Position numbers and translations under genes: made by a program. The notes below the pieces were generated by a model. It did not search any database. It was given only the letters and a program-made list of their open reading frames with translations, and had not been told where the DNA came from. A stretch of DNA of 64,000 nt, taken from the NCBI RefSeq assembly GCF_900141855.1, contig NZ_FQYU01000001.1:95402-159401 (forward strand), read 5' to 3'. Source of the DNA: Pseudozobellia thermophila (GTDB taxonomy: Bacteria > Bacteroidota > Bacteroidia > Flavobacteriales > Flavobacteriaceae). Position 1 is the first letter of the stretch; every line of letters begins with the position of its first letter. Below are positions 3,865 to 56,222 of this stretch, piece by piece.

Positions 3865-5215
3865 TCTTATTGTACAGGGTCTTTCGGGTCACCTGCAGTA
3901 GTTTGGCCGCCTTCGACTTATTGAAATTGGTCTTTTTCAGGGCCTTGATGATCCGTTCCTTTTCAAATTCCGATTTTGAGAACCCATCCGCGACGGAAAC
4001 TTTTTCCTGGGGCTGAAGTACCTCCTTCGGGAGGGCCGAAACCTCCACTTCGTCGCCAACGGTCAACAATACGGCCCGCTTGATCACATTTTGGAGTTCG
4101 CGAAGGTTTCCGGGCCAGCGGTATAGCTGAAAAGCTTCCCAAACCTCTTTCGAAAATCCTTGAACATTTTTGCCAAGATTGGCATTCGCCTTGGCCAGAA
4201 AATTTTCGGCAAACAGGATCAAATCTTCAAAACGGTCTTCCAACGAGGGTATTTCTATTGAAAACTCGTTCAATCGGTGATAGAGGTCTTCCCTGAAGCT
4301 TCCTTTTTCAACGGCATCGGTCAAATCTTCGTTCGTAGCGGTAATAATACGCACATCGACCTCAATTTCCTTGGTACTTCCCACCCTTTTGATCTTACGT
4401 TCCTGAAGGGCCCTGAGCAGTTGTATTTGGTTTTCATAGCTTAGGTTTCCGACCTCGTCAAGGAACAAAGTACCCTTGTTCGCCGCCTCGAAATTTCCTA
4501 TTTTGTCTTCGACGGCACCGGTAAAGCTTCCCTTGATATGTCCAAAAAATTCGCTCGTGGCCAACTCCTTGGGTATGGCACCGCAGTCGACGGCCACAAA
4601 ATTAAAATCCCGTCTATTGCTGTTATCGTGAATGGCCCTTGCCGTAACCTCTTTGCCCGTCCCGCTTTCCCCGGTTATCAAAACCGACATATCGGTCGGG
4701 GCGACCAATTTGATATAATCATCCAATTTTTTGGATGCCTCGCTGATTCCCTTGACCACTTTGCCCCCCTTATCGGCGGTAAGGGCCGGCTTGGCCTTTG
4801 TCGCAACCCCATCTGCCGAATCTTCCCGTGGCCCGTCTTCCTCGTTTGGGGTAGCCGGAACCTTTAGGGCGTTATCGAGCACCATGACTATCTCATCGGG
4901 TGTAAAAGGCTTTGATATATAATCGAAGGCCCCTTTTTTCATGGCATTGACCGCGGAACCTACCTCGGCATAACCGGTCATAACGATTACCTGTGTCGAG
5001 GGATTGACCGATTTGATGTCGGTCAATAATTGTATCCCATCGTAATCGGGCAAACGCAGATCGGTAAGAATAAGATCGTAAGCCTTACTTTCGATTTTCT
5101 GCTTGGCATCGGGGACGGTAAAACTGGTCTCGACCTCGTAACCACGTTTGGTCAAAAACTTTTGCAACATTTGGCAAAAGGCGGCATCGTCTTCAATTAT
5201 CAACAGGTTTGGCAT
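3839..5215 (-). CDS. Sigma-54-dependent NtrC-type response regulator (REC + AAA+ sigma-54 activator + Fis HTH)
   Basis: Receiver LLIIEDD...LILTDLRLPDYDG; Walker A GESGTGKEV; GSFTGA sigma-54 contact motif; C-terminal HTH KAAKLLQVTRKTLYNKI. The likely start is the internal Met (MPNLLIIEDD) at 5215. The 3' end overlaps the convergent kinase gene by 26 bp. Confidence 0.9.
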   Translation of the reverse strand: MPNLLIIEDDAAFCQMLQKFLTKRGYEVETSFTVPDAKQKIESKAYDLILTDLRLPDYDGIQLLTDIKSVNPSTQVIVMTGYAEVGSAVNAMKKGAFDYISKPFTPDEIVMVLDNALKVPATPNEEDGPREDSADGVATKAKPALTADKGGKVVKGISEASKKLDDYIKLVAPTDMSVLITGESGTGKEVTARAIHDNSNRRDFNFVAVDCGAIPKELATSEFFGHIKGSFTGAVEDKIGNFEAANKGTLFLDEVGNLSYENQIQLLRALQERKIKRVGSTKEIEVDVRIITATNEDLTDAVEKGSFREDLYHRLNEFSIEIPSLEDRFEDLILFAENFLAKANANLGKNVQGFSKEVWEAFQLYRWPGNLRELQNVIKRAVLLTVGDEVEVSALPKEVLQPQEKVSVADGFSKSEFEKERIIKALKKTNFNKSKAAKLLQVTRKTLYNKINHYNLDL

Positions 5216-42305: not shown

Positions 42306-42517
42306 CTGATTACAAACACAATAAGCCCTAGCCAAAAATCGTTGAAAACACAGTATTTCGTCGAAAAATTTGTAGTATTTTTCTTTGTTAAAAGTATATT
42401 TAACATGCTCTAGCATACAAATTATTGTATCGATTATTGGTTTTCCTTCTTATGTTTTGCACACCTGGTTTTTCCGATAGTATCCACTTTGATTAATTGG
42501 GCAAGGGGAAATGGCTC
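42306..42517 (+). repeat. Direct repeat copy A: a diverged duplicate of the promoter and first ~30 codons of the OMP gene at 48129, truncated by an in-frame TAA
   Basis: Collinear with 48011..48221 (TCGAAA(A/T)TTTGTAGTATTTTTC...CCTTCTTATGT.TTG.ACAC.TGGTTTTTCC...TTGGGCAAGG.GAAATGGCTC); similarity stops exactly after AAATGGCTC. Confidence 0.7.
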
Positions 42518-42587
42518 CCATATAAGCATGGTACTACCAACTACAACAATCAAAAATTCAAGCAACGAAAAAAAGGGAGGTCAAACA

Positions 42588-42695
42588 TTTGAATTAAGCG
42601 ATCGAAAATACAGCCGAGCAAGAAACTATGCGGAAGATCAAACGGTTCTCAAAAACGACAGTGAAGGTTTAACACCAGCATGGGCACAAACGTGA
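42588..42695 (+). pseudogene. C-terminal fragment of an IS200/IS605-family Y1 (RAYT-like) transposase
   Basis: ...YSRARNYAEDQTVLKNDSEGLTPAWAQT* parallels the C-terminus of the 43630..44038 copy (...YSSARNYAEDQTVLKIDSEGLT). Confidence 0.6.
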
Positions 42696-42720
42696 CACCG
42701 GCGCCAGCAGGTGATGGCTC
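42683..42720. repeat. REP-like element / IS200-like right-end motif, family member 1
   Basis: GCACAAACGTGACACCGGCGCCAGCAGGTGATGGCTC; nearly identical to 44882..44919 and related to 44068..44100. Confidence 0.6.
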
Positions 42721-43629: not shown

Positions 43630-44038
43630 ATGAGCAGAAAACACAAATTCAATAACCCTACCGCAGCCTACTTCGTAAGCTTCGCCACCGTATATTGGAT
43701 CGATGTGTTTACCAGACAGGCCTATTTCTCGATATTGGAAAATGCGGTCGGTTACTGTCGAGCGGAAAAAGGAATGGATATTACGGATGATGGAAAGCGC
43801 AGCCAAAAAGAAAAGGAATATAACCAAAAGGCAATTCTGGCAACATAACAACAAACCTATTGAGCTATGGAGTAACAAAGTCATAAAACAGAAGATCGAT
43901 TATATACACAACAACCCGGTAGAAGCAGGGTTCGTAACAAATGCCATTGATTGGAAATACAGCAGTGCAAGAAACTATGCGGAAGATCAAACAGTTCTCA
44001 AAATTGACAGTGAAGGTTTAACACTAGGTATGCTATGA
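43630..44038 (+). pseudogene. tnpA: IS200/IS605-family Y1 transposase (REP-associated tyrosine transposase-like), frameshifted
   Basis: N-terminal part MSRKHKFNNPTAAYFVSFATVYWIDVFTRQAYF (frame of 43630..43848) continues in another frame (43703..44038) as ...IDYIHNNPVEAGFVTNAIDWKYSSARNY; a Y1 transposase interrupted by a frameshift. Confidence 0.7.
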
Positions 44039-44067: not shown

Positions 44068-44100
44068 GGGCATAAGCGTGACGCTTGTGCCAGCAGGGGA
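44068..44100. repeat. Right-end hairpin / REP-like motif, family member 2
   Basis: GGGCATAAGCGTGACGCTTGTGCCAGCAGGGGA, which contains the palindrome AAGCG-TGA-CGCTT. Confidence 0.55.
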
Positions 44101-44205
44101 GAGAAATCAACTATCCAGGAGGCGGGCATCAATATGAGTTTATAAACGATTGGAGTATTGATAATTTCACAGATTATTTAAACTTAATAGAAAAAAAATA
44201 ATCAA

Positions 44206-44881: not shown

Positions 44882-44919
44882 CCGCACAAACGTGACACCG
44901 GCACTAGCAGATGATGCTC
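44882..44919. repeat. Solo REP-like motif, family member 3
   Basis: CCGCACAAACGTGACACCGGCACTAGCAGATGATGCTC, about 90% identical to 42683..42720. Confidence 0.55.
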
Positions 44920-47736: not shown

Positions 47737-47811
47737 CCCTCACGCTCGTGCCCGCAACAGACAATACCCCCCACTTCGGCAGGCTCGGCGCAAGGCTTCG
47801 AAGGGCGGGGA
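47737..47811. repeat. Hairpin-rich repeat element, copy 1
   Basis: TCACGCTCGTGCC (half of the IS200-like LE palindrome) followed by CCCCCCACTTCGGCAGGCTCGGCGCAAGGCTTCGAAGGGCGGGG; the same roughly 45-bp imperfect hairpin recurs at 56043..56089. Confidence 0.6.
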
Positions 47812-48010
47812 ATGTTCCCGGCCTTAGGGCCAGTTCGCAGGTATGCATTTGGAATTGTCTTCGGTACTGGCCACACGGTCAAGCAAGTCGGCCCGGGAGT
47901 GAAAACCACGCGTATTAAATACTTACAACAAAATAAAACTTCCTACACAAATATTAATTTTCTTGTAGTCCTTACAACGCCAATATTCACAATATATAAC
48001 ACGTACTTCA

Positions 48011-48221
48011 CTCATTACAAACACAATAACTTCATTTAAAAAAATCTAAGATTCATTACATTTCATCGAAATTTTTGTAGTATTTTTCGCTTTTTAACTT
48101 AAATTTAACTAGTTAAGAATACGAATCATTGTACCGATTATTAGTTCCCCTTCTTATGTGTTGTACACTTGGTTTTTCCCAAAGTATCAACTTTGACCAA
48201 TTGGGCAAGGAGAAATGGCTC
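48011..48221 (+). repeat. Direct repeat copy B: the functional promoter and 5' end of the OMP gene
   Basis: See copy A at 42306..42517. Confidence 0.7.
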
Positions 48222-50588
48222 AGATACAACGGCGGTGTGTCGGCCAATGCCGTCTATTACGACGGTACCGCCAACCGACAGGAGCTCACCTATTACCTCA
48301 CCGGAAGCTTAAACTTCAACATTGCCGGGGTGTACAACGTTCCGCTATCGTTTACCTATTCGAACCAAGAGTTCAATTTTCCCAACCCCTTTAACTTTAA
48401 TCGCTTGAGCCTGCATCCATCCTACAAATGGGCTACCGCACATATCGGCGACGTAAGCATGACCTTTTCGCCCTACACCCTCGCCGGTCACCAATTTACG
48501 GGCGGCGGTTTTGACCTGAATCCGGAAGGGAAATTTCAAATAAGCGCCATGTACGGCCACTTTTTAAAGGCCACCGAATACAACGAGGAACACCCCGAGG
48601 CCCTTACCGCCTACAAACGCATGGGCTATGGCATAAAGACCGCCTATGATTTCGATTTTATGAAACTGGGACTCATTCTCTTTAAGGCCCATGACGAAGA
48701 GAACTCATTGGAAAATCCGTTTCCCGTGGAGCTCGGACTCTCACCCAAAGACAATGCCGTGCTCTCCTTCGAATCGGAATTCCGGCTTTTCGAAAAGGCC
48801 AGTATACACATAGAATACGCCATATCGGGCGTTACCGAGGACACGAGGCCGACCGAAGCCCCTTCGTCTCCCGGGCTGCTGTCCTTCCTTCTAAAAGAAA
48901 ACATAAGCACCCAATACTACAAGGCCCTGAACGCATCGTTAGACTACCCCGCGGGCAACGGAACCTTGGGACTAGGGTATGAACGCATCGACCCCGAGTA
49001 CAAGACCCTGGGTGCCTATTATTTCAACAACGACCTCGAAAACATCACGGTAAACGCGAGCCAGTCGGTTTTCGACAACAAACTCAACCTCAGCGTAAAC
49101 GCCGGCCTGCAGCGCGATAACCTGAACAAGGCCAAATCATCGGACCAACAGCGCATCGTAAGTGCCATCAACGCCAATTACACGGCCTCCGACCGTTTGG
49201 GCTTCAATGCATCCTACAGCAACTTTCAGTCCTACACCAACATTCGCGACCAGTTCGATTACATCAACCAAGTAGGGGCCTACGACAATATAGACACGCT
49301 GAACTATCGCCAGATTTCACAAAATGCCAACTTGGGCATCAACTACATCCTCAAAAAAACAGAGACCAAACAGCACAGCACCAACCTTAACCTGGTCTAT
49401 CAAAACAGCACCAACCAACAGGAAGGCGAAACCATAGAAGGCGGGGAAAACTCCTTCTACAACGGTATGGCGGGCTATACCCTGGGCTACCCCAAACAGG
49501 CCCTCAACATCTCCTTGGCCGCCAACGTTTCGTACAATACCGTGGCCGAGGACGACAACATGACCCTTGGCCCCACCCTATCCATCGGCAAGCAGTTTTT
49601 CGACAAGCAACTGCGCACCAACTTTTCAAGTTCGTACAATACGAGCTACGCCAACGGGGAACAGCAGAACAACATCCTTAACTTTAGGTTGGGCAGTAAC
49701 TATACGCTGTACAAAAAACACAACCTCAGCCTTAATTTTCTGATGCTTTTCAGGAATTCGGAACTCAATACGGGGCGCGACCTGACCATTACCTTCGGCT
49801 ACAGCTATGCCTTTGACAACTTTAAGCTCGACCTTGATTCCCATAGGCGCAGTCCCAACGAACGCGACCCCCGCAACAGGGAAAGCACGTTGAGCTTCCG
49901 CTACCGCAATGTATCGTACAGCGGCACGATACCCCAACTGAACGAGCAGCTGACCAACGTGTACGAGAGTCCGCAGTTCGCCGACATCCCCCAATTCAAG
50001 AAAGACGAGCTCAAAATCCTTTTGGCCACCGTCAAAGAGCAAAAGCGGGAGGAAAAATACAAGGAGCAGGCCCTTATTTTTCTTGAGGAGCTCTACGCCT
50101 TCGACGATTTTAAAACCATTTACGACGAGGCCCTGTACAACGTGGTCATGGCCATCAAAGACGACATGAAGAAAGTGGACATGGCCCTGGAAAAACTCTT
50201 CGTCGCCAAAAAACTGGAAGCCGACGAGCACCCCCTGAACGGAAAGGGTCCCGAAAACTATACGGAAAAGGACAAAACCCTGGTGCCGGAGTACGAAGCC
50301 CTCCTAAAAGAGCGGGAGACCCGTTTGCGAAAATTGGTAGGACATAGGTGGATGGAAACCCAGTTCGCCGCCTTTACCTCCAAGGAAAAGATAGCGAAAG
50401 GAATAGGCTTTTTACTGGAGTTCAAGAAAAAACAGGCCCTAAAATCCTTTGAGCTTTATGAAAAAACCGAAAACCAGGAAAAACTGGAATACTACCTCGA
50501 AAACGAAATCATCGATTTCTACTATAAGAAGTCGCTGAAAACGGTAAACCCCGAACTGTTCGAACTGAGGTATATCAATAAATTGTAG
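48129..50588 (+). CDS. Large outer-membrane beta-barrel-like protein (~570 aa, aromatic/Asn/Ser/Thr/Tyr-rich) with a ~230-aa C-terminal helical Lys/Glu-rich domain; unknown family
   Basis: TTG start with signal peptide (M)YRLLVPLLMCCTLGFSQS; alternating beta-strand character with frequent aromatic-Asn/Ser residues; C-terminal ...KEQKREEKYKEQALIFLEELYAFDDFKTIYDEALYNVVMAIKDDMKK is helical. Confidence 0.7.
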   Translation: MYRLLVPLLMCCTLGFSQSINFDQLGKEKWLRYNGGVSANAVYYDGTANRQELTYYLTGSLNFNIAGVYNVPLSFTYSNQEFNFPNPFNFNRLSLHPSYKWATAHIGDVSMTFSPYTLAGHQFTGGGFDLNPEGKFQISAMYGHFLKATEYNEEHPEALTAYKRMGYGIKTAYDFDFMKLGLILFKAHDEENSLENPFPVELGLSPKDNAVLSFESEFRLFEKASIHIEYAISGVTEDTRPTEAPSSPGLLSFLLKENISTQYYKALNASLDYPAGNGTLGLGYERIDPEYKTLGAYYFNNDLENITVNASQSVFDNKLNLSVNAGLQRDNLNKAKSSDQQRIVSAINANYTASDRLGFNASYSNFQSYTNIRDQFDYINQVGAYDNIDTLNYRQISQNANLGINYILKKTETKQHSTNLNLVYQNSTNQQEGETIEGGENSFYNGMAGYTLGYPKQALNISLAANVSYNTVAEDDNMTLGPTLSIGKQFFDKQLRTNFSSSYNTSYANGEQQNNILNFRLGSNYTLYKKHNLSLNFLMLFRNSELNTGRDLTITFGYSYAFDNFKLDLDSHRRSPNERDPRNRESTLSFRYRNVSYSGTIPQLNEQLTNVYESPQFADIPQFKKDELKILLATVKEQKREEKYKEQALIFLEELYAFDDFKTIYDEALYNVVMAIKDDMKKVDMALEKLFVAKKLEADEHPLNGKGPENYTEKDKTLVPEYEALLKERETRLRKLVGHRWMETQFAAFTSKEKIAKGIGFLLEFKKKQALKSFELYEKTENQEKLEYYLENEIIDFYYKKSLKTVNPELFELRYINKL

Positions 50589-50836
50589 ACAATGAACAAT
50601 TAGCAATTAGCAATAAACAATGAGCAATGAACAGTTAACAGTAGGCAGTGGGCAGTGGGCAGTGAACAGTTAGCAATTAGCAATTAGCAATGAACAATTA
50701 ACAGTGAACAGTTGGCAGTGGGCAGTGGACAATTGACAATTAACAGTGAACAGTTAGCAATGAGCAATGAACAGTAGGCAGTTGGCTGTGGGCAGTGGGC
50801 AGTGAACAGTTGGCAGTGGGCAGTTGGCAGCTATTA
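50589..50836. repeat. Tract of about 35 tandem degenerate heptanucleotide repeats (unit RCARTKR, e.g. GCAGTGG / GCAATTA / ACAGTGA)
   Basis: acaatga acaatta gcaatta gcaataa acaatga gcaatga acagtta acagtag gcagtgg gcagtgg gcagtga ... gcagttg gcagcta; starts on the base after the OMP stop codon and runs into the 5' end of the next long ORF. Confidence 0.9.
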
Positions 50837-50869
50837 GTTCTAAGAAAATTAAAAAATATCGGACCGTTG

Positions 50870-53800
50870 ATGACCAACAGCGTTATAAAACATATGAAAA
50901 ACAACGATTTAGCATTGCAGCATCCCTTTACAAACCCGGTAAATGGCCGTGGCGCATGGCGCAAGACCTTCGGTAAGGGTCAGGCTGTGCTTTTATACAT
51001 GCTTCTTTTCTTCCTATGCTTCCTGGGTAGCCTCGCGGTAAACGCCCAGTCCTTTCCCGTTCAGGTGATTCCTCAGGTAACCCCGCCGGCGCCGATCTAT
51101 TTCTCCGATTATGCCGATGCGAGTACCTTGGGCAGTCCGCTCCGCGTGCAGATCATCTTGAACGATTTTGAGATCGCCAACCGCGAGATACGCCTGCGTA
51201 CCTATTTTGAGGGCGGGGGTATCAGCTTTCATAGTAACGATGTGGTGCTAGGTGCCGAAAAACTCTATTTGGAAGGCGGCGTGCCCTTGGTACTCACCAA
51301 CGTACAATTGGCCCCGTACTTTAGGTTCGAGAACATTAGCGGAATATCGCCCAACGTATACGGAAAAGCCATTCCCGAAGGCGCCTACTCCTTTTGTTTT
51401 GAGGTGTACGATGTACTGACGGGCAACCGCCTGTCGCAAAAAAGCTGTGCCACCAGCGTTGTCTTTCAAAACGAACCGCCCTTTCTGGTCGCACCGAGAA
51501 ACAAGTCCAACCTAGCCGAAACCAATCCGCAGAACATCGTCTTCCAATGGACGCCACGCCACATCAACGTGAGCAATGTGGAATACGAACTGAGCATCGT
51601 GGAGATCTGGGATACCCAGGTAGACCCGCAACAGGCCTTTTTAAGCTCTCCGCCCGTTTTTCAGGTCACGACCACCGCCACCACCTACGTATACGGTCCG
51701 GCCGACCCGCTTTTTCTTTCGGGAAAAAACTACGCCTGGCGCGTACAGGCCAAGGCCAAGCAAGGGGTCGAGGAAATCGGACTCTTCAAAAACCAGGGCT
51801 ATAGTGAAATCTATTCCTTCAGCTATGCCGGCACCTGCGACCTGCCCATCGGTATCAACCACGAAGTAAAGGGCAGTACCAATGCCAATATCTTTTGGGA
51901 CGATTTCGCTACCGATGTGCCCGAATATACGGTGCGGTACCGCCAAAAGAACATAGAGGGAGCGGAGTGGTTTATGAACAAGACCACTTCGAACCAAACC
52001 ACCCTGTGGGACCTTAAGGCAGGCACCACCTACGAATACCAGGTGCAAAAACAATGCTCGGTGACCGGAAGCGATTGGAGCATGGCCAAGGAGTTTACCA
52101 CCTTTATCGCCGACGACGAAGCCAGTGTCTACGACTGTGGCATAACGCCCGATTTTGATGTTTCGAACAAAGAGCCCCTGCCCAGCATCTCCTCCGGTGA
52201 AAAGTTTATGGCGGGCGACTTCCCCATAAATATTTTAAAGGTAAGCGGTAAAAATGGCCGTTTTACGGGTAAAGGATACGTGACCATCCCTTATTTGAAC
52301 AGCATTCGAGTGGGCGTAGAGTTTACCAATGTGCTTATCAATACCGACAAGAAATTGGCCGAAGGTACCGTAGTCACCACCTACGACCCGAGTTTAAAGA
52401 ACATCTTGGACATAAACGAATCAGTCGATACGGTAGAAGATGCCGTTGATGCCGTGGGGGAATTTTTTGAAGGAGATAACGACCTAGATGAAATTCGCGT
52501 CAACTGGGCCCTTAGATCTAAGAAAGATATAAAAATAAAAGGTGGTAAAGTCGTGATCACCAACCCCAATACGGGGGCAACCAAATCGGAACCCTTAGGC
52601 GACGATATGGTGATTACCGACAGTGAAGGGAAAACCTATTACGTAGATGCGGAAGGAAAAATAACCGAAGGGGGATCACTTGCTACTGGCGGGGCCATAA
52701 GCCCGGATACCGTAGAAGGCGTCTCGAACAACGGCCAAATAGAATCCTTAACGGCAGAAGGTGTTCTGGTCACCTTTAACGAAGCGGGTACGTATGCCAT
52801 GGATATAATGCCCAAGGGCGAAATAGGAAAGCTCAAGGACGAGTACACAGTTATAAAGGATGCGGAAGGCAACGACTATGTGCTTACCCACCATGCCGTA
52901 AAGAATAGGGCAAGCACCAAAATAAAGGCCAAAATCGACATTAAAAACGATGCCTACGATGTATCGGATGTCATCTTCAAGACCAAGCATGGGGATAGTA
53001 TCCCCACGACCTTCAAGGGCAATCAGGCCACCTTGACCTTGAAAGGCAGGTTTACCTTCGAAAACGAGGTAATCTATGCGGTCGTACCCGACAAGGACGA
53101 CAGTACAAAACAACTTACGGCCGGGGCGTTTACCCTTTGGCATCTATCCGAACGCACCGTAAAAGTGGCCCTGGTTTCCGTTAACGGCGCCTCTTTGGGT
53201 AATATCGAATCCAACGTTTCCGACATCTTCAAAAAAGCGGTGGCCCGTATTGAGTTCGGCGAGAGCCTTTCCCTTTCCGTCACCAAGGACGAACTAGGAA
53301 GCAACCAAAAATTGGATGTAGGCGAAAGCGCATGGGCCGCGGCCTATAACGAGGAACAGAAGATGCTCGTAAACAAGGTGAAGCAATTGCCCAACTATAA
53401 GACCGACACCTATTATGTCTTGGTCTTCAACGACATAGAACCTTCAGAATCCATCGGTGGATTTATGCCCCTACAGCGGCAAATGGGCTTTGTATTTGGC
53501 GGTGACCCAGATGATGGTGAAGATAAGAACGGGGACAAGAGCAAGACCTTGGCCCACGAAATAGGCCATGGTATTTTCGCCCTTCAGCACCCCTTCGCTG
53601 AATATGACATGCCTGAAAATCAAACCGATTGGCTCATGGATTATGGCAGTGGAGACCAATTGCCCCATACCCATTGGGCCCAGATCCATGACCCGGCCCT
53701 TAAATTCTACATTTTTCAAGATGAGGAGGATGGTTTATTAATACAAAACGGAATCACTCCATATCTTAACATTCATGAAAAAAATTGGGATAATTATTGT

Positions 53801-55912
53801 TTTTTGTCTCCTATTGGTACTGCAATAGATATACCGGGTGCCACCCATGTAATGTTTAATGAAGATGGGGCCGTAATTGCTTTTAAAATAGGTAATGAAA
53901 AATTTTTAGGGCTTTATAACCCGGCCAAGCAGCGTTTTATAGGATATCTCAACTCTACTTCAAAACTGATTACAAAAGAAATGAGTCTCACAGAAGACTT
54001 TAGAAAAAAATTCAATGAAGAAAAATTCACCAATATCAAATTTGCTGAAAAATCCAAAGATATTGTCGCAATTGCTAAAAAAAAGCATAAATCAAGATAT
54101 TTGGATTGTATCTATCAAGTGATATGGGAAAATTCAACAATAGGAAGTAGCTATACTGGTATATCAACCCCGCCCTTTATTCCAAATGACGGTACCATAG
54201 AGAATTTTATTTCTGGCAATCAATGTGCAAATGCTACAAGTGATGGAATAATCGATGGCCCAGGTGATGTAGTTTATTTTAAACTATTTGAGTTTGTTGA
54301 CAATGAAGAAAGAATAAAATTGATAGAGTTTTCAAATTACTTATCCGATTTATTAAAAAATAAAACCTTCGCGTTCTACGGATATGGTTTAGAAAATTAT
54401 GAAATATCCAATTCGATTAACAAAGAAGTTTTAAATTATTTAACAAACAATAAGATTTATTCCAAGGAAAAATTTGAAGAACATTTTCCCATTCAAACAT
54501 TCTCACGTGACAAAGACATAATATTTTCCACAATTGATTTAAGAAAAACAATACCAAAGGATTATAATTCGAAGGAAAGTATAGATTATGAAATACTCAA
54601 TGCGACAGGGGAAAAGCGTCCATATGAATATTCTTTCTCTGATTTGACAGTTCGACTTCAATATTTAGCCGACGACACTTTTATTAAAACGGCCATTCAT
54701 AAAATGGAAGCCGAAGGTAGAGCTGAGCCAATTTCTCAAAAAGACGGATACAACCAATACGTAGCTAAGTATGGTACTGATGCCGCGTTTATTCTATGGG
54801 CAGAATTTGCTTCCAATGCTAGCAAAGATGTTATGTCCGCTTATTTTATCCATAGAGTCACTGCTGAATATGGTGTTGCCCTCTTACAAGAAATTTCAAA
54901 AGAAGCGGCAGAAAAATTCATATGGGGAGTACTAGAGGAATCTATTCCGAATTACCTTGCAAACGAATTACTTGACGAAGATCAATTTAGTAAAGACTTC
55001 TTTCAAGATGCATTGTTAGCAGGTGTCAAAAATACAATTAGCCCCACAGGTAGAAAATTTACGGATGTTGCAATTGAGAAAGGATATGATTGTCTCATTG
55101 GACTTGATATATCAACAATTGATGGTCTTTTATTTTCAAAGTCAAAAGAAGAATTGGAAAAATACTTACTGTATGGGTCATTTGAATGTGTTTTTCCAAT
55201 GATTGCTCCCAAACTGTTTGATTATGTACTCAAAGGTAACCCGGTCGCAAAAAAAGTACACAAATATTTGACAACAAAGCTAAATATTGACCATAGTCAG
55301 ACCCCTGATTTAATGATTAAAATGTTGGGGATGGAAAAAAACTTAAAGGGGAAAAGCGAACATTATAGAAGTGTTTTAAAAGAAATCATTACTACAGAAT
55401 CTGGCGCCCAAGCAATTGATGTTTTAATTAAAGCAAATTTTGACTATACCACGTTATCGGTCTCCAATTTAAGAAGACTAAAAAATGTCGTAGAAAAATG
55501 GGGAAACAGTAATGAAATGGTGGAATTATTCAAAAGCACAACCGATGTAAACAGAATGCTGATTTACATGGAAAAAATGGTGAAATCACCACAAGAATAC
55601 AAAGAGCTATTAAAAAAAATAGGCGAAAATGAGATGTTTTCAAAAACAATAACGATAAATGGAAAAACAGTGAATATAGAAACCTATTTCAATAGTTTTC
55701 ATGACGGGTATACCTATTATCACAAACAAGAGAATAACATACATTACTATGCGAAAATGAACGGGGCCGACGGTTTGCGTATCATAATAGACCTAACCAA
55801 TAGTGCTATTCCTGTGATAAAAAATATATCGTATGGCACAGCAGCTAACGTTCTGAAAGATTTCATATCAAATTCGATAGAATATAAGTTGGACATTTCA
55901 GATGATAACTAG
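50870..55912 (+). CDS. Giant secreted multidomain protein (about 1680 aa): FN3-like domains, a central zincin-like HEIGH metallopeptidase module, and a low-GC C-terminal third of unknown function
   Basis: The ORF is open from 50795, but its first 25 codons are the heptamer repeat. Candidate starts are M at 50870, 50894 or 50999, all before the signal-like segment LLYMLLFFLCFLGSLAVNAQS. FN3-like blocks (e.g. ...IVFQWTPRH...YAWRVQAKA..., ...TVRYRQKN...YEYQVQKQ). LAHEIGHGIFALQHPF at 53555..53569. GC drops from about 50% to about 28% near 53700. Confidence 0.8.
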   Translation: MTNSVIKHMKNNDLALQHPFTNPVNGRGAWRKTFGKGQAVLLYMLLFFLCFLGSLAVNAQSFPVQVIPQVTPPAPIYFSDYADASTLGSPLRVQIILNDFEIANREIRLRTYFEGGGISFHSNDVVLGAEKLYLEGGVPLVLTNVQLAPYFRFENISGISPNVYGKAIPEGAYSFCFEVYDVLTGNRLSQKSCATSVVFQNEPPFLVAPRNKSNLAETNPQNIVFQWTPRHINVSNVEYELSIVEIWDTQVDPQQAFLSSPPVFQVTTTATTYVYGPADPLFLSGKNYAWRVQAKAKQGVEEIGLFKNQGYSEIYSFSYAGTCDLPIGINHEVKGSTNANIFWDDFATDVPEYTVRYRQKNIEGAEWFMNKTTSNQTTLWDLKAGTTYEYQVQKQCSVTGSDWSMAKEFTTFIADDEASVYDCGITPDFDVSNKEPLPSISSGEKFMAGDFPINILKVSGKNGRFTGKGYVTIPYLNSIRVGVEFTNVLINTDKKLAEGTVVTTYDPSLKNILDINESVDTVEDAVDAVGEFFEGDNDLDEIRVNWALRSKKDIKIKGGKVVITNPNTGATKSEPLGDDMVITDSEGKTYYVDAEGKITEGGSLATGGAISPDTVEGVSNNGQIESLTAEGVLVTFNEAGTYAMDIMPKGEIGKLKDEYTVIKDAEGNDYVLTHHAVKNRASTKIKAKIDIKNDAYDVSDVIFKTKHGDSIPTTFKGNQATLTLKGRFTFENEVIYAVVPDKDDSTKQLTAGAFTLWHLSERTVKVALVSVNGASLGNIESNVSDIFKKAVARIEFGESLSLSVTKDELGSNQKLDVGESAWAAAYNEEQKMLVNKVKQLPNYKTDTYYVLVFNDIEPSESIGGFMPLQRQMGFVFGGDPDDGEDKNGDKSKTLAHEIGHGIFALQHPFAEYDMPENQTDWLMDYGSGDQLPHTHWAQIHDPALKFYIFQDEEDGLLIQNGITPYLNIHEKNWDNYCFLSPIGTAIDIPGATHVMFNEDGAVIAFKIGNEKFLGLYNPAKQRFIGYLNSTSKLITKEMSLTEDFRKKFNEEKFTNIKFAEKSKDIVAIAKKKHKSRYLDCIYQVIWENSTIGSSYTGISTPPFIPNDGTIENFISGNQCANATSDGIIDGPGDVVYFKLFEFVDNEERIKLIEFSNYLSDLLKNKTFAFYGYGLENYEISNSINKEVLNYLTNNKIYSKEKFEEHFPIQTFSRDKDIIFSTIDLRKTIPKDYNSKESIDYEILNATGEKRPYEYSFSDLTVRLQYLADDTFIKTAIHKMEAEGRAEPISQKDGYNQYVAKYGTDAAFILWAEFASNASKDVMSAYFIHRVTAEYGVALLQEISKEAAEKFIWGVLEESIPNYLANELLDEDQFSKDFFQDALLAGVKNTISPTGRKFTDVAIEKGYDCLIGLDISTIDGLLFSKSKEELEKYLLYGSFECVFPMIAPKLFDYVLKGNPVAKKVHKYLTTKLNIDHSQTPDLMIKMLGMEKNLKGKSEHYRSVLKEIITTESGAQAIDVLIKANFDYTTLSVSNLRRLKNVVEKWGNSNEMVELFKSTTDVNRMLIYMEKMVKSPQEYKELLKKIGENEMFSKTITINGKTVNIETYFNSFHDGYTYYHKQENNIHYYAKMNGADGLRIIIDLTNSAIPVIKNISYGTAANVLKDFISNSIEYKLDISDDN

Positions 55913-55960
55913 CGAAACATATAAACATATAATTAATGGCGTGCGGAACACCCCTCTAGC

Positions 55961-56089
55961 GCAAGCATCACGCTCGTACCATGTTCAAAACACCCCTGTA
56001 AAGTAGTAGGGTACTACTTTACCGTCCCCCCAAGGGGACAATAACCCCTACTTCGGCAGGCTCGGCGCAAGGCTTCGAAGGGCGGGGGA
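55961..56089. repeat. Hairpin-rich repeat element, copy 2 (longer; nested palindromes)
   Basis: TCACGCTCGTACC ... GTAAAGTAGTA-GGG-TACTACTTTAC (11-bp arms) ... GTCCCC-CCCAA-GGGGAC ... CCCCTACTTCGGCAGGCTCGGCGCAAGGCTTCGAAGGGCGGGGG; the 3' part is nearly identical to 47767..47811. Confidence 0.6.
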
Positions 56090-56222
56090 TGTAGGATCGA
56101 ACCGATGCAGATAGAAGGGAAAAATAGAAAGGTGAATAAAACAAAAAGAAGAAAAAATAAAAAATGATTGAGTCTCCCTTAGTTCCCTGGGGAGTACATA
56201 AACACGAAAAATTTCACGTAGT

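Follow-up and report, generated by a model that had tools for sequence, protein, structure and literature searches.

A 35-unit intergenic heptanucleotide array in Pseudozobellia thermophila and its one- to three-unit counterparts in Zobellia

The spacer between an 810-aa gene and the giant gene that follows it in Pseudozobellia thermophila contains a tandem array of 35 degenerate heptanucleotides, whereas the orthologous spacers of four Zobellia genomes contain one to three units of the same kind. The array lies within the window analysed here, a stretch of 64,000 nucleotides of contig NZ_FQYU01000001.1, and it belongs to the known class of bacterial intergenic heptanucleotide repeats. With moderate confidence, we regard it as a degenerate minisatellite that grew by slippage and unequal exchange in the P. 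thermophila lineage and that is tolerated there without a dedicated sequence-specific function.

The coordinates of the features are collected in Table 1. When the sequence is cut into 7-mers from 50590, 35 consecutive in-register units (245 bp) are read without a single indel, in agreement with the approximately 35 degenerate heptamers over 245 bp that had been noted in an earlier reading of the letters alone (the sequence-only reading). That reading let the tract begin at the nucleotide after the stop codon of the upstream gene, which is true in its own register; in the register used here the array starts 1 nt past the stop codon. It had also been said to fill the whole intergenic space; this space measures 281 nt up to ATG 50870, and the array takes up 245 of them, ending 35 nt before this ATG. 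Three positions of the unit are near-fixed, position 1 (C in 35/35), position 2 (A in 34/35) and position 4 (T in 34/35), and the others are about 40–50% polymorphic (G21/A14 at position 3, G17/T15/A3 at position 5, A21/G14 at position 6 and G20/A14/T1 at position 7). There are 15 unit types, the most frequent being CAGTGGG (five copies) and CAATGAA, CAATTAG, CAGTGAA and CAGTTGG (four copies each), arranged in alternating blocks of A/T-rich CAAT and G-rich CAGT units. Purines predominate on the + strand (A 88, G 72, T 52, C 36), a stop triplet is found inside 23 of the 35 units, and all three + frames are closed except at the G-rich 3′ end. A three-unit degenerate pattern has 33 matches in the window, all of them within the array, compared with 0.13 expected from shuffles; the same scan found no second array of this pattern elsewhere in the 64 kb.

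Superimposed on the basic period of 7, for which TRF reports 0% indels, there are higher-order periods of 14, 28, 42, 63 and 70 bp, together with a 21-bp sub-period in the 3′ half of the array. The longest exact repeats inside the array measure 25 nt (50702/50800) and 24 nt (50648/50788), and never more than two identical units are adjacent. An 18-mer, AACAGTGAACAGTTRGCA, had been thought to recur about four times; only two occurrences were found, and the element present four times is instead the 14-mer CAGTGAACAGTTRG, at 50660, 50702, 50744 and 50800. The 70-bp period and the 24–25-nt internal repeats indicate probable block duplications in the later growth of the array.

Table 1. The heptamer array and its flanking features (positions in the window).
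Feature	Position	Strand	Basis
Bacteroidetes-type promoter-like motif TTTG-N-TAAATTTA, 5′ of the 810-aa gene	48074..48107	+	motif scan
Upstream gene, 810 aa, N-terminal signal-like sequence	48156..50588	+	60–94% identity across Flavobacteriaceae
“Unit 0”, TTGTAGA, overlapping the stop codon TAG (50586–50588), in register, 5/7 match	50583..50589	+	reading and Zobellia alignment (CAGTAGG there)
Heptamer array, consensus CA[A/G]T[G/T/a][A/G][A/G] (CA-R-T-K-R-R)	50590..50834	+	direct reading, TRF, pattern scan
70-bp (10-unit) higher-order repeat, 3.2 copies, 80% matches, score 292	50593..50815	+	TRF
Conserved A-rich leader TAGTTCTAAGAAAATTAAAAAATATCGGACCGTTG between the array and the first conserved ATG	50835..50869	+	Zobellia alignment
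Giant gene, 1680 aa, one fn3 domain, hydrophobic signal-like segment; second conserved ATG at 50894	50870..55912	+	Pfam, Zobellia alignment, Logan gene call

An independent short-read assembly of the region (Logan, run SRR4169751) contains two contigs, 47781–50703 and 50675–56079, both 100% identical to the window. Their overlap, a 29-mer inside the array, occurs only once in the window, and every array base is covered; the assembly does not join them, with one 31-mer (50674–50704) missing between the two, which gives the break no interpretable bearing on heteroplasmy. For P. thermophila, one strain and one read set are on record. This break within the array is what speaks for an assembly artefact in array length or unit order. 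Such an artefact is very improbable, as the two identical contigs together cover all the array bases and the longest internal exact repeat (25 nt) is shorter than the k-mer of 31.

The array is located between two protein-coding genes of the same orientation. The 810-aa protein, which is named “TonB-dependent receptor” or “outer membrane protein beta-barrel” in the sources, has no Pfam or NCBIfam match, and its assignment as an outer membrane protein (OMP) is plausible. Its sequence agrees at 100% identity with a P. thermophila protein. For the giant protein, Pfam and NCBIfam yield fn3 alone. Further 3′, the giant gene is followed by a gene for a 1670-aa protein and then by one for a 678–687-aa fn3 protein, and the cluster is closed, just outside the window, by a 1678-aa SprB/Por_Secre_tail (T9SS) protein. 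GTG 50795, from which a “1705-aa ORF” had been drawn, lies inside the array and is a mechanical ORF extension, made possible because the G-rich 3′ end of the array is stop-free; it is not the real start. ATG 50870 and ATG 50894 are conserved in Zobellia and the true start is therefore a downstream Met, as the sequence-only reading had anticipated. In the Logan assembly, the recorded gene call starts the giant gene at 50870, and no product starting from 50894 is on record.

Regarding transcription, a motif scan found no Bacteroidetes-type promoter motif between 50588 and 50894, and the one that it did find is 5′ of the 810-aa gene, a disposition which suggests that the 810-aa and giant genes are probably co-transcribed, with the array intercistronic in one transcript. 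The sigma-70 scan of the tract gave a single 9/12 match (50712–50740), not above chance, and a terminator scan gave nothing above chance. The giant gene is closely followed by a perfect hairpin, GTAAAGTAGTA-GGG-TACTACTTTAC (55998–56024), which could be a terminator, and the next spacer, 5′ of the 1670-aa gene, contains an A-rich period-7 mini-array (AATAAAA x4.4) at 56135–56165.

The 3′ third of the giant ORF (54000–56000) has a GC content of 33–34%, compared with 46–53% in its first 3 kb, and the Zobellia orthologues of the protein have 1058, 1064, 1785 and 1930 aa, with small ORFs following in two of the genomes; swapping of C-terminal modules is suggested by this pattern. The 810-aa/giant gene pair is flanked, in both outer spacers, by the copies of a 56-nt dispersed repeat (47760–47815 and 56037–56092, 95% identical) of the form GACAATA.CCCC.ACTTCGGCAGGCTCGGCGCAAGGCTTCGAAGGGCGGGG.ATGT, with inverted CCCC..CTTCG / CGAAGG..GGGG ends. 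Three Logan contig ends (47781, 56058 and 56079) fall within this repeat, which is therefore probably a multi-copy REP-like element of the P. thermophila genome. In addition, a segment made up of the promoter-like region and the initial ~100 nt of the 810-aa gene (48060–48229) has a duplicate 5.7 kb upstream (42355–42525, 80–83% identity). The duplication brackets a low-GC island (33–39%, 42.3–48.1 kb) that contains small ORFs without Pfam matches as well as internal repeats (42600–42678 resembles 43949–44027 at 90%; 42684–42716 resembles 44070–44102 and 44884–44916). One of its ORF fragments (43703–44038) carries a YIHNNPV...WKYSS motif, which we take to be reminiscent of IS200/RAYT-type transposases. 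Z. laminariae lacks the island and has M61 peptidase and acetyltransferase genes directly upstream, and in Z. uliginosa and Zobellia sp. OII3 small ORFs are found at the island position.

The orthologous locus was read and aligned in four Zobellia genomes. In each of them, 43–67 nt separate the stop codon from the first conserved ATG, compared with 281 nt in P. thermophila, and heptamers are found at the stop codon in the same register as the P. thermophila array. Z. laminariae has a single unit (CAGTAGG), Z. uliginosa strain 1 has two (CAGTAGG CAGTAAT), Z. uliginosa strain 2 has a variant 3 nt longer than that of strain 1 (~2.4 units), and Zobellia sp. OII3 has three (CAGTAGG CAGTGGA CAGTAAT). 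Z. uliginosa and Zobellia sp. OII3 have their stop codon inside the first unit; in Z. laminariae, whose stop codon is TAA, the unit starts just after it. One inter-genome difference in spacer length within the set formed by Zobellia and P. thermophila is not a multiple of 7. The 3′ flank, TTAG..C TAAGAAAATTAAAAAA ... ATG ... ATGAAAAAC, is alike in Z. uliginosa, Zobellia sp. OII3 and, after the array, P. thermophila. The leader motif TAAGAAAATTAAAAAA within it is common to the Z. uliginosa and Zobellia sp. OII3 loci (L123, L124 and L126), and Z. laminariae (L127) retains only AAAATTAAAAAA, with no second ATG. Because one to three in-register units lie between the same conserved flanks in Zobellia, the most parsimonious reading of these sequences is that the array would be a lineage-specific in-situ expansion, about tenfold, which took place in the Pseudozobellia lineage from an ancestral proto-repeat of 1–3 units. 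The suggestion that the tract is a product of slippage-type instability gains support from this series of 1, 2, ~2.4 and 3 units set against 35.

More distant Flavobacteriaceae do not share the CAGT units: none was found at the spacer in 80 metagenomic loci of the same gene. The pooled autocorrelation of the orthologous Flavobacteriaceae spacers is weakly raised at lag 7 (0.337 vs ~0.30), which does not amount to a universal signal and is restricted to a few lineages. Some other Flavobacteriaceae have short heptamer runs of other sequence after the orthologous gene, (GGGTGTT)x3.7 and a GARRTAC-like series, and a hexamer run, (GAAATG)x4, also occurs in such a spacer (these runs are at L147 4967–4992, L154 ~4960–5040 and L146 ~2221–2290). 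The contig of one distant homologue (L186 1–69) opens with (GTAGGCA)x9.7, an array of the CAGTAGG type.

The proposed course of events would begin with a short proto-repeat (CAGTAGG CAGTRRN) overlapping the stop codon of the upstream gene, which repeated replication slippage and unequal exchange would have enlarged in the P. thermophila lineage, single units being added first and multi-unit blocks later, so as to give the 70-bp higher-order period. The expansion would have taken up the one stretch free of constraint, which separates the stop codon from the conserved A-rich leader of the giant gene, and the array would be tolerated because it is non-coding, signal-free and structure-free, which makes it presumably near-neutral. 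Its direct consequence is a longer intercistronic spacer, 281 nt in place of 43–67 nt, and the giant gene would be affected, if at all, as a side effect of that length.

Arrays of this type are widespread. A scan for (CARTDRR)x5 over 185,579 species-representative genomes, for which chance expectation is ~1e-3 by our own estimate, matched at least 120 genome loci. Among the matches listed there are Cyanobacteria (Microcoleus, Rivularia, Microcystis and others), Bacteroidota (Chitinophagaceae, Saprospiraceae, Flavobacteriaceae and Cytophagales), Acidobacteriota, Planctomycetota, Chloroflexota and other phyla. Within this same sample of listed matches, which is biased by the search pattern and was placed on approximate, crude ORF-based gene maps, 78 of the 80 placeable arrays are intergenic, and the 80 placed arrays have no orientation preference relative to genes: 21 are same-sense and 25 antisense to their neighbours, 13 lie between convergent and 21 between divergent genes. 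No orthologous pairs for measuring turnover were found among the matches listed (at least 120 loci). About 10 of the 34 listed arrays with a co-directional upstream ORF begin 0–4 nt past its stop codon on these crude maps (for example L002, L003, L004, L038, L084, L087, L089, L107 and L117), and most unit types of the listed arrays contain TAA, TAG or TGA. Stop-codon anchoring may be a general way of seeding or bounding such arrays, to judge from their sequences.

The period of 7 dominates the tandem repeats of the listed loci (240 arrays), followed by 14 and 21, and 80 of the 240 period-7 arrays have unrelated units, with neither a CAGT nor a CAAT core. Among IMG/VR viral contigs, the test pattern has at least 120 matches and two permuted control heptamers have at least 120 and 88, a coarse comparison since two of the three counts are lower bounds. 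A mechanism specific to the CA-T core was rejected, as the permuted controls are about as frequent in the viral contigs and a third of the period-7 arrays lack the core. With control heptamers similarly frequent and a third of the arrays core-less, the special feature is therefore the 7-nt unit length and not the CA-T core. Five-unit arrays of both test and control patterns are plentiful in the viral contigs (L208–L287), including giant-virus MAGs (GVMAG records).

A classical phase-variation switch, one of the roles that had been suggested for the tract, is unlikely, given that the tract is 5′ of the start codon, too long and too degenerate; contingency loci contain a long perfect or near-perfect tract, and here no more than two identical units are neighbours and the longest exact repeat is 25 nt. 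Curved DNA and a recombination hotspot, which the sequence-only reading had also put forward, are candidate roles. Lying upstream of the start codon, the array is therefore unable to frameshift the giant gene, and a frameshift switch was rejected, as was a promoter-spacing switch, since neither a sigma-70-type nor a Bacteroidetes-type promoter straddles the array. The scarcity of identical neighbours and the shortness of the exact repeats make the array a poor slippage substrate now, and high-rate slippage at present appears unlikely from its sequence; block-level unequal exchange is possible. Folded alone, the array RNA is less structured, for either strand, than any of 200 shuffles (z +3.55 and +4.70), and when flanks of 50 nt upstream and 220 nt downstream are included, its fold is still weaker than that of each of 100 shuffles (z +4.2). 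Hairpin, terminator and hmw-like models were ruled out by folding below the shuffles. At E<=1, Rfam has no match to the array, the only match being a chance one to HCV elsewhere.

The main alternative to a tolerated minisatellite is an expression rheostat or contingency locus, in which the array would be transcribed in the RNA of the giant gene, as leader or intercistronic sequence, and a length changed by slippage would tune the transcription read-through, the mRNA stability or the translation of that gene, after the hmw1A model. The position of the array is a counter-point to neutrality, since a place directly 5′ of a giant, probably surface-associated protein gene is the classical setting of repeat variation; the 7-bp units precede a giant gene with an fn3 domain, the gene cluster is closed by a SprB/Por_Secre_tail (T9SS) protein, and the unit number varies between relatives (1–3 vs 35). 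Use of Shine-Dalgarno sequences is largely absent in the phylum Bacteroidetes. An unstructured purine-rich RNA would suit ribosome loading, and MacGregor proposed the binding of S1 or Csp for TAACTGA-type repeats (PMC4679880). The precedent, which is also the functional case best understood so far, comes from Haemophilus influenzae, where the length of the (ATCTTTC)n repeat of hmw1A/hmw2A inversely sets adhesin expression by way of a 5′-UTR hairpin that RNase III cleaves (PMC12721329). The two systems have in common that tandem units of 7 bp, transcribed in the leader in the case of hmw (PMC12721329), precede the gene for a very large surface protein, and they differ in that hmw has perfect repeats, which form a long hairpin by pairing with a G-rich segment, whereas the P. 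thermophila units are degenerate and their RNA is less structured than shuffles. The absence of an hmw-type hairpin (z +3.5 to +4.7), the degenerate units, whose slippage would be far below that of perfect tracts, and the lack of orientation preference of the arrays as a class among the matches listed all weigh against a rheostat, which we consider unlikely. A version of it in which the array would be a Bacteroidota counterpart of the hmw heptamer, acting as a transcribed, unstructured and stop-rich spacer whose length, altered by block exchange, would set the giant:OMP ratio, is an analogy that seems quite improbable.

The array might alternatively be a multi-site protein-binding array or a DNA-structural element, in which a DNA-binding protein would recognise the CA(R)T core at 7-bp intervals, with a phasing of 21 bp, and would organise or silence the locus. 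The near invariance of C1, A2 and T4 over 35 units and the 21-bp sub-period in the 3′ half speak for such an element, and an unidentified partner binding heptamer repeats has been speculated on in a Nostoc preprint, where deletion of a heptamer repeat had modest effects on reporter expression by a mechanism not established (10.1101/2022.06.06.494920). The contrast between the near-fixed C1/A2/T4 and the ~40% polymorphic rest is a suggestive but weak sign of constraint on the CA-T core: two singletons do fall on positions 2 and 4, and breakpoints of intra-unit slippage can reshuffle a few old point mutations into 15 unit types. Binding is nonetheless highly doubtful, as the Zobellia orthologues manage on 1–3 units, genomes with such arrays also contain many heptamer arrays of unrelated units, viral contigs show the control patterns at about the same frequency, and no candidate for a binding protein came to light. 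A G-quadruplex, or another non-B DNA or RNA element like those of the GGGAATC and GGGGAYT heptamers, could be imagined from the G-rich strand (G 72 vs C 36), the CAGTGGG units and the precedent of PMC4692102. It is extremely improbable, since a regular-expression search found no four-G3 motif even with loops of up to 12 nt, there is just one weak G2 motif (at 50777), and units with GGG are never adjacent in runs of more than two.

The tract had not been recognised by the sequence-only reading as a described element, yet intergenic heptanucleotide tandem repeats have already been described (PMC4679880; PMC4692102), including mixed arrays in Flavobacteriia (PMC4679880). As represented in these two papers, Mrazek et al. 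2007 found heptanucleotides to be the most abundant class of long SSR in many prokaryotes and considered that ~7 nt possibly contact the polymerase during slippage; the heptamer excess is attributed there to polymerase slippage, and repeat-less relatives are mentioned for Gramella and Aequorivita (PMC4679880; PMC4692102). The P. thermophila array consists of head-to-tail 7-nt units without spacers, well beyond chance (35 units, 0 indels; 33 matches against 0.13), it is non-coding, between the stop codon at 50588 and the conserved ATG 50870, and its copy number varies among related genomes at one site. In tandem 7-nt structure, excess over chance, intergenic location, heterogeneity, variability between close relatives and the polymerase slippage proposed as origin, it resembles the long SSRs as these papers portray them, with no difference in kind; the genus is not among the hosts named in PMC4679880 and PMC4692102.

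Among the closest described arrays are the direct repeats of the heptamer TAACTGA reported by MacGregor (2015) in Beggiatoaceae, 15 Cyanobacteria and 5 Bacteroidetes, including long arrays, interspersed with further heptamers, in Gramella forsetii, Aequorivita sublithincola and Elizabethkingia anophelis; the closest relatives of these Flavobacteriia have shorter spacers without repeats (PMC4679880), a situation like that of Zobellia and P. thermophila. TAACTGA is the reverse complement of TCAGTTA, which repeats as CAGTTAT, and the unit families are thus related. Exact TAACTGA, TCAGTTA or CAGTTAT units are missing from the P. thermophila array because position 7 is a purine, the nearest being CAGTTAG, CAGTTAA and the terminal CAGCTAT. 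Both neighbouring genes have the CAGT strand as their sense strand, which corresponds to MacGregor's “reverse” orientation, and 35 nt separate the end of the array from the start codon, whereas the “forward” BOGUAY pattern is within a few nt of the start.

Heterocystous cyanobacteria have STRR (short tandemly repeated repetitive) heptanucleotides with the units CCCCAGT, CAACAGT and TTGGTCA, reportedly described by Mazel et al. in 1990. Three STRR heptanucleotides are mentioned for Calothrix PCC 7601 in a citation within PMC4692102. They are likewise tandem heptamers that share a CAGT or CAAT core when rotated, and they differ from the P. thermophila array in their exact units, in their host, which here is not a cyanobacterium, and in being dispersed and multi-copy, compared with one array in the 64-kb window. 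The heterogeneous GGGANTN arrays of Rehm et al., with conserved and free positions, vary extensively in length between close Xanthomonas relatives (PMC4692102). The GGGAATC (Xanthomonas) and GGGGAYT (Nostoc) repeats resemble the P. thermophila array in being intergenic and heterogeneous, with some positions conserved and with a length that varies between close relatives (PMC4692102); they are quadruplex-forming, whereas the P. thermophila array has no G-quadruplex motif.

By itself, the locus matters little, being one more instance of a known and functionally unexplained class. If the hmw-like version of length control were true, stop-codon-anchored heptamer arrays would be a general, cross-phylum means of tuning operon-internal expression. 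The Flavobacteriaceae are known for invertase-type rather than repeat-type variation, and if length variation does tune the giant gene, the array would be an early case of SSR-based expression control in the family. The comparison of Zobellia with Pseudozobellia captures the birth of what would be an expanded array from a seed of 1–3 units that includes the stop codon, with both flanks intact, and this pair of genera may serve as a clean natural example for the question of why bacterial slippage favours 7-nt units.
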